Shown here piece by piece: positions 1 through 1,041 of a stretch of DNA of 1,041 nt. Location: sequence record MT912504.1; one strand, given 5' to 3'. The position numbers were made by a program, and so were the translations under genes. The DNA is from a phage. The first letter of the stretch is position 1. Each line of letters starts with the position of its first letter. A model generated the notes under the pieces. It was not told the DNA's origin. It saw nothing but the letters and a program-made list of their open reading frames with translations, and did not search any database.

Positions 1-1041
1 ATGGCTAATGTTCCTGGTCAGAAAATTGGTACTGATCAGGGTAAAGGTAAATCTTCTTCTGATGCTCTTGCTCTTTTTCTTAAAGTTTTTGCTGGTGAGG
101 TTCTTACTGCTTTTACTCGTCGTTCTGTTACTGCTGATAAACATATTGTTCGTACTATTCAGAATGGTAAATCTGCTCAGTTTCCTGTTATGGGTCGTAC
201 TTCTGGTGTTTATCTTGCTCCTGGTGAGCGTCTTTCTGATAAACGTAAAGGTATTAAACATACTGAGAAAGTTATTACTATTGATGGTCTTCTTACTGCT
301 GATGTTATGATTTTTGATATTGAGGATGCTATGAATCATTATGATGTTGCTGGTGAGTATTCTAATCAGCTTGGTGAGGCTCTTGCTATTGCTGCTGATG
401 GTGCTGTTCTTGCTGAGATGGCTATTCTTTGCAATCTTCCTGCTGCTTCTAATGAGAATATTGCTGGTCTTGGTACTGCTTCTGTTCTTGAGGTTGGTAA
501 AAAAGCTGATCTTGATACTCCTGCTAAACTTGGTGAGGCTATTATTGGTCAGCTTACTATTGCTCGTGCTAAACTTACTTCTAATTATGTTCCTGCTGGT
601 GATCGTTATTTTTATACTACTCCTGATAATTATTCTGCTATTCTTGCTGCTCTTATGCCTAATGCTGCTAATTATGCTGCTCTTATTGATCCTGAGACTG
701 GTAATATTCGTAATGTTATGGGTTTTGTTGTTGTTGAGGTTCCTCATCTTGTTCAGGGTGGTGCTGGTGAGACTCGTGGTGATGATGGTATTACTATTGC
801 TTCTGGTCAGAAACATGCTTTTCCTGCTACTGCTTCTTCTGATGTTAAAGTTACTATGGATAATGTTGTTGGTCTTTTTTCTCATCGTTCTGCTGTTGGT
901 ACTGTTAAACTTCGTGATCTTGCTCTTGAGCGTGATCGTGATGTTGATGCTCAGGGTGATCTTATTGTTGGTAAATATGCTATGGGTCATGGTGGTCTTC
1001 GTCCTGAGGCTGCTGGTGCTCTTGTTTTTTCTCCTGCTGAG
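1..1041 (+). CDS. 10A: Major capsid protein of a T7-like podovirus (Autographiviridae-type, HK97 fold), homolog of T7 gp10A. Complete or near-complete: ATG at nt 1, open to the last base, stop codon not in window.
   Basis: Frame +1 is open across all 347 codons. Translation begins MANVPGQKIGTDQGKGKSSSDALALFLKVFAGEVLTAF and ends KYAMGHGGLRPEAAGALVFSPAE. By eye it is collinear with T7 gp10A as I recall it (about 345 aa), with many identical blocks along its full length and a C-terminus aligning to T7's ...GHGGLRPEAAGAVVFKVE. The single Cys (TGC, nt 430-432, in the LCN motif) sits at the same place as in T7. Gene symbol follows T7 nomenclature and is a homology call. The identification rests on memory of the T7 sequence, not on a database search. 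The provided ORF track omits this frame, presumably because it has no in-window stop. Confidence 0.9.
   Translation, partial: MANVPGQKIGTDQGKGKSSSDALALFLKVFAGEVLTAFTRRSVTADKHIVRTIQNGKSAQFPVMGRTSGVYLAPGERLSDKRKGIKHTEKVITIDGLLTADVMIFDIEDAMNHYDVAGEYSNQLGEALAIAADGAVLAEMAILCNLPAASNENIAGLGTASVLEVGKKADLDTPAKLGEAIIGQLTIARAKLTSNYVPAGDRYFYTTPDNYSAILAALMPNAANYAALIDPETGNIRNVMGFVVVEVPHLVQGGAGETRGDDGITIASGQKHAFPATASSDVKVTMDNVVGLFSHRSAVGTVKLRDLALERDRDVDAQGDLIVGKYAMGHGGLRPEAAGALVFSPAE

Follow-up and report, generated by a model that had tools for sequence, protein, structure and literature searches.

Results

The window encodes the major capsid protein of phage K1F

The stretch of DNA analysed here, called the window throughout, is 1,041 nucleotides long and is filled from its first to its last position by the coding sequence of a phage capsid protein. 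Codon tabulation of frame +1 (positions 1–1041, + strand) gives 347 sense codons and zero stops, with ATG as the first codon and GAG as the last. When 50,697 phage records were searched by tblastn, the translation of this frame was identical at 347/347 residues (100%) to the major capsid protein gp10A of Escherichia phage K1F. Both independent genome records of K1F and their RefSeq copies give this 100% match, and all other records reach at most 98.8%. The band of 60–80% protein identity contains 1031 phage records.

In the K1F genome, gene 10 has the scaffold gene 9 on one side and the tail tubular gene 11 on the other. It occupies positions 21136–22179 of NC_007456 with its stop codon, the coding part being 21136–22176, and its product gp10A is YP_338120.1 (10A in AM084414). 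The window holds the complete gp10A coding sequence (1–1041, + strand) in a recoded form, with a translation identical to that of NC_007456 21136–22176. The ATG start and the final sense codon are common to both sequences, but the native gene ends in TAA, which is left off in the window. The window has only the reading frame, without flanks.

Residues 60–342 of the translation (positions 178–1026, + strand) form a Gp10A-like major capsid domain, Pfam PF21703. The match covers positions 1–279 of the 279 in the profile with E = 3.8e-105 and 352 bits (cut-off 27), which places the protein within this family of T7-like Autographiviridae capsid proteins. The translation also matches PHROG 267, 'major head protein'. 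Solved structures of T7 gp10A (2xvr, 3izg, 3j7v-x) are similar to it over the full length with E = 1.7e-145, and the closest solved structure is 9vvq (E = 1.1e-216), a 347-aa chain that is ~97% identical as judged by eye from the alignment. T7 gp10A is thus a full-length homologue of the window protein, but T7 belongs to the genus Teseptimavirus, whereas K1F is a T7-like member of Kayfunavirus. The encoded protein is a normal HK97-fold capsid subunit of the T7 type. It is an already known protein from a well-characterised family with near-identical solved relatives, and nothing in it is new at the protein level.

Each amino acid is written with one codon

The translation contains 19 kinds of amino acid, Trp being the missing one, and each of them is encoded in a single way throughout the window. 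The codons are GCT, TGC, GAT, GAG, TTT, GGT, CAT, ATT, AAA and CTT, followed by ATG, AAT, CCT, CAG, CGT, TCT, ACT, GTT and TAT. An earlier reading of the window, made from the letters alone and referred to here as the sequence-only reading, had claimed that there is no synonymous variation over the 347 codons and that AAA, GAG, CAG, TGC and ATG are the only codons not ending in T. The codon table of frame +1 confirms the claim, with no second codon anywhere, and the list is exact. Of the degenerate amino acids, 17 occur five times or more, and all of these are monocodonic. For Cys, the single codon is trivially true because this residue is present just once. The effective number of codons (ENC, Wright), which the same reading had expected near 20, is 20.0, the theoretical minimum, whereas native K1F gene 10 has an ENC of 38.35. 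In the native gene, codons are mixed for all degenerate amino acids with two or more occurrences, with the exception of Asn (14/14 AAC). The proposal that the window translates to a T7-like major capsid protein whose native DNA is mixed in its codons is therefore borne out by the PF21703 match, the 347/347 identity with K1F gp10A and this native ENC. The two genes also differ in composition. T fills 84.7% of third positions in the window versus 36.6% in the native K1F gene and makes up 41% of the window overall, and the GC content is 39.8% versus 53%.

Alignment of the window with gene 10.0 of NC_007456 shows that the two DNAs are 81.2% identical and differ at 196 nucleotides. All 196 differences are synonymous, with 0 amino-acid changes. 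They fall at third codon positions in 187 cases, at first positions in 6 and at second positions in 3, and the changes at the first two positions fit the counts of native TTG codons (3) rewritten as CTT and native AGC/AGT codons (3) rewritten as TCT. The window and the native K1F gene agree in 159/347 codons.

As a natural reference we used 111 genes of at least 100 codons each from K1F, T7, phiX174, M13, G4, alpha3 and E. coli K-12, the last represented by a 36-kb stretch that includes ribosomal-protein operons, tufA and fusA. Among these 111 genes the lowest ENC is 28.6 (alpha3 G), closely followed by E. coli tufA with 28.8, and the most monocodonic gene uses a single codon for only 3/16 amino acids. 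The genes of phiX174 have ENC values of at least 32.5 with at most 3/16 amino acids monocodonic, i.e. they mix their codons. The codon bias of the window (20.0) is outside the range of natural highly expressed genes (lowest 28.6), and the statement of the sequence-only reading that natural genes mix synonymous codons holds in this set, where none of the 111 falls below 28.6. Chance gives the same picture. The probability that all amino acids are monocodonic is 10^-75.4 with the codon frequencies of the native K1F gene and 10^-88.9 with the T-biased frequencies of phiX174, and 2000 random back-translations drawn from phiX174 frequencies always have an ENC of at least 36.2. The one-codon pattern is deterministic and is no mere bias.

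Searches for the DNA itself return native capsid genes as the best matches

An exact search with 50 bases of the window (601–650) found no copy in the contig collections for viruses, genomes and metagenomes, and megablast of the window was likewise without a match among 72,556 plasmid records and 5,426 complete E. coli genomes; these DNA searches left out the synthetic-construct and patent records of GenBank. The best matches in the phage collection are native Kayfunavirus capsid genes at 80–82% identity (maximum 81.8%), a level that is accounted for by the shared amino acids and the 159 coinciding codons. The prediction that the DNA would have no close nucleotide match therefore stands only in part. 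No natural DNA with the exact sequence was found, but megablast does recover the native genes at ~81%. A natural genome with the exact sequence, the observation that the sequence-only reading had named as contradicting it, was encountered in none of the viral, genome, metagenome, plasmid, E. coli and phage collections.

Recoding creates repeats and open frames and overwrites the gp10B frameshift site

Several features of the window that would draw attention in a natural gene are by-products of its codons. Stop counts per frame show that the antisense frame -1 is open throughout (1–1041, - strand, 0 stops). It is no gene, since its openness follows from the fact that none of the 19 codons is a stop when reverse-complemented. 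Frame +2 contains two stops only, and an ORF caller could give spurious long ORFs on both frames. A tandem array of the CGTGAT type with a period of 6/18 lies at 912–947 (+ strand, TRF score 34–49), and stems from the spelling of the peptide RDLALERDRDVD with one codon per amino acid. In addition, the window has 12 dispersed direct-repeat families versus 1 in the native K1F gene, because recurring short peptides receive identical codons each time. Homopolymer runs of 5–6 bases (T5, T6, A6) are present at window positions 74, 86, 311, 499, 609, 875 and 1025, and runs of five or more are absent from the native K1F gene. The composition of the window, its repeats, its T-runs, its stop-free antisense strand and its nearly open +2 frame are products of the codon table and not biology.

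The 3' end of the gene illustrates the loss of a real signal. Native K1F carries GGTTTTC, read as G GTT TTC, at gene positions 1023–1029 (NC_007456 22158–22164). In T7, GGTTTTC occurs at position 23986, the corresponding site towards the 3' end of gene 10A. This heptamer is the -1 slip site of T7 for the minor capsid protein gp10B, which the T7 record annotates as a two-piece joined CDS. Beyond the heptamer the -1 frame runs on for 48 aa in K1F and for 56 aa in T7, with a conserved stretch common to both: the K1F continuation contains EETLTPQQKAARTRAAN, which is clearly related to the T7 continuation EETLTPAQEAARTRAAN. The NC_007456 record annotates gene 10.0 only, and a 10B feature is missing from it. 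Comparison with K1F and T7 shows that in the window the heptamer at 1023–1029 (+ strand) reads T GTT TTT in place of the native G GTT TTC. GGTTTTC is absent from the entire window, and the downstream gp10B extension is missing as well. The changed heptamer and the missing extension indicate that the overlapping gp10B signal was overwritten by the recoding. A gene built from this DNA would therefore differ in function from the native gene. The instructive point is that blind back-translation strips overlapping signals such as the -1 frameshift site of gp10B. The sequence-only reading had warned that motifs and repeats at the nucleotide level are uninformative here, a caution well founded in view of the 12 versus 1 repeat families, the homopolymers, the stop-free antisense strand and the lost frameshift site. 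Native signals, be they regulatory or evolutionary, are absent from the DNA of the window, and a search of it for native features at the nucleotide level would be misplaced.

The codon table coincides with the most frequent codons of phiX174

To compare the fixed table with known usage, we counted the codons of annotated genes in the genomes of six phages and in two groups of E. coli genes, ribosomal-protein and gsp. For each of 18 degenerate amino acids, a match was scored where no codon is more frequent than the one used in the window. phiX174 (NC_001422) matches at 18/18, with TGC:TGT tied 13:13 over 10 genes and 15:15 when A* is included. When only the structural and scaffold genes D, J, F, G and H of phiX174 are counted, the match is again 18/18 and there is no tie. 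alpha3 follows with 17/18, missing at Cys in a near-tie of 12:11. The match is 15/18 for M13, 11/18 for both G4 and T7, and 9/18 each for the K1F genome and for K1F gene 10 alone. The E. coli genes for ribosomal proteins, rpoA, EF-Tu and EF-G reach 8/18, as do 12 weakly expressed gsp genes of E. coli. The top-codon tables of K1F itself and of T7 are therefore rejected as sources (9/18 and 11/18). M13, G4 and alpha3 fit more poorly than phiX174 (15, 11 and 17 of 18), with alpha3 not strongly excluded. The sequence-only reading had speculated that the table resembles the preferences of small coliphages. The 18/18 match, counting the Cys tie, shows that the hunch was accurate and narrows it to phiX174. 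The agreement does not extend to the protein, as the window protein is unrelated to Microviridae.

The Cys codon has to be considered separately. Because of the exact tie, the table is compatible with phiX174 but not uniquely fixed by it, and another genome may share the same top codons. TGC and TGT are also tied, 10:10, over genes A, C, D, J, F, G and H of phiX174. The presence of TGC in the window fits an alphabetical tie-break in a table-building script.

We infer that the table was probably derived from phiX174, TGC having been taken in its tie with TGT. Our confidence stops at this level because of the Cys tie, the near-tie in alpha3 and the good fit of a simpler rule, by which someone would have chosen by hand the T-ending codon where one is available and AAA, GAG and CAG elsewhere, independently of phiX174. 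This rule describes 14/15 amino acids that have a T-ending option, and phiX174 gives no decision for Cys. The same residue is where the rule fails, since the window has TGC instead of TGT, and further arbitrary choices would be needed, namely AAA yet GAG and CAG, and TCT over AGT. The top codons of phiX174 provide all these choices at once, TGC being the alphabetically first of the tied pair, and genes D, J, F, G and H provide them without any tie. A hand-made table is hence an unlikely source.

Discussion

Our data suggest, with a probability of about 95%, that the window was produced artificially, by back-translating K1F gp10A with a single codon per amino acid. The lack of a stop, of flanks and of synonymous variation is what results when a protein sequence is written out with a fixed codon table. 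In this process, a person or a program would have taken the protein sequence of gp10A and written each amino acid with one fixed codon. The fixed table would then be that of the most frequent codons of phiX174, the tables of K1F, T7 and E. coli being excluded. The properties of such a back-translation are seen together in the window: an ENC of 20, synonymous-only differences from the native gene, no natural DNA found and a single reference table that is reproduced. The sequence-only reading had called the DNA a back-translation or a designed construct, and the ENC of 20.0, the exact K1F gp10A translation and the failure to find a natural copy uphold this.

One-codon sequences of this kind have a precedent. 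The OPTIMIZER server is described as offering a 'one amino acid-one codon' design, in which a single codon is chosen deterministically for each amino acid from a reference usage table, with an ENC of 20 (PMC1933141). The window follows the same principle, but its reference fits phiX174 and not an expression host, and its adaptation to E. coli is lower than that of the native gene.

Could the DNA nevertheless come from nature, as the capsid gene of a K1F-like phage that has escaped sampling and is extremely biased towards T-ending codons? The 159/347 codons already common to the native gene and the window, and the alignment of Kayfunavirus genes at 80–82%, would be in line with such an origin. 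The one-codon pattern would then have arisen with a probability of 1e-75 to 1e-89, and the lowest ENC of any natural gene tested is 28.6. In addition, the window differs from K1F by 196 synonymous and 0 non-synonymous changes, while the nearest natural relatives differ in protein (at most 98.8%). The G GTT TTC site that is conserved in T7 and K1F is lost, and the window is bounded exactly by the ATG and the last sense codon, with the stop missing. We reject a natural origin on the probability, the comparison with 111 genes and the synonymous-only difference from K1F, and regard it as effectively refuted.

Purposeful redesign of the gene can be weighed by codon adaptation. Taking 31 MG1655 genes (ribosomal proteins, rpoA, tufA, fusA) as the reference set, the CAI drops from 0.666 in the native gene to 0.575 in the window. 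Optimisation for expression in E. coli would be a conceivable aim, since K1F gene 10 is under active engineering, at the C-terminus of gp10B (PMC10367136). This CAI below the native value, together with the agreement of the table with the best codons of highly expressed genes at 8/18 only, leads us to reject it. Poor host codons are used, such as CTT (w = 0.078), AAT (0.162) and CCT (0.291), and T6/A6 runs and many repeats remain. The window is without a stop codon, a tag, an RBS or a cloning flank, and has zero matches in the 72,556 plasmid records. The restriction scan gives two BbsI sites (GTCTTC, at 287 and 995), and the sites of the 16 other enzymes checked are absent from the window; the scan gives no hint that cloning sites were put in or taken out by design. 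Our literature search, which surfaced the gp10B engineering of K1F, found no recoded K1F gene 10 matching the window. We therefore consider E. coli optimisation improbable. The lower CAI is in the direction expected of the opposite aim, a capsid gene deoptimised in its codons for phage attenuation, and for T7 such capsid genes are reported, with strains whose major capsid gene contains 182 suboptimal codons (bioRxiv 10.1101/106799). The drop is modest, though, and a table in which 8/18 codons are the best of E. coli follows no deoptimising rule. The bare reading frame, without a stop and with the gp10B frameshift site destroyed, also speaks against this aim, and comparable work on K1F was not returned by the literature search. 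Deoptimisation is thus even less probable than optimisation, and a plain back-translation of the gp10A protein remains our preferred explanation.

We further infer that this back-translation very likely exists in silico only, without a built construct. A K1F capsid gene actually built in a single-codon 'phiX174 dialect' is, by our estimate, a long shot. If it had been built, such a gene could possibly be used for complementation, as a copy proof against recombination or CRISPR, or to test how a T7-like phage tolerates a one-codon capsid gene without gp10B frameshifting.

The window can be regarded as a protein sequence in disguise. Since its DNA is a fixed-codon back-translation, only the protein sequence is biologically informative. 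The main value of the finding lies in quality control, since it allows the window to be flagged as non-natural.

In the course of the protein comparisons we noted several labels that deserve attention. PDB entry 9vvq is labelled 'Minor capsid protein', although its chain of 347 aa is as long as gp10A, the major capsid protein, and the alignment of the two covers 346 residues. Among the phage records, the same capsid gene appears inconsistently as 'scaffold protein', 'minor capsid protein' or 'hypothetical protein', in MK610268.1, PQ133619.1, the Salmonella PRF-SP series, MT682707.1 and KY295894.1. Finally, MT350292.1, 'Enterococcus phage EFA-1' with the host Enterococcus faecalis, contains a capsid protein with 98.6% identity to gp10A of the coliphage K1F. 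This capsid is odd for a Gram-positive host, which suggests a mislabelled host or a contaminant.
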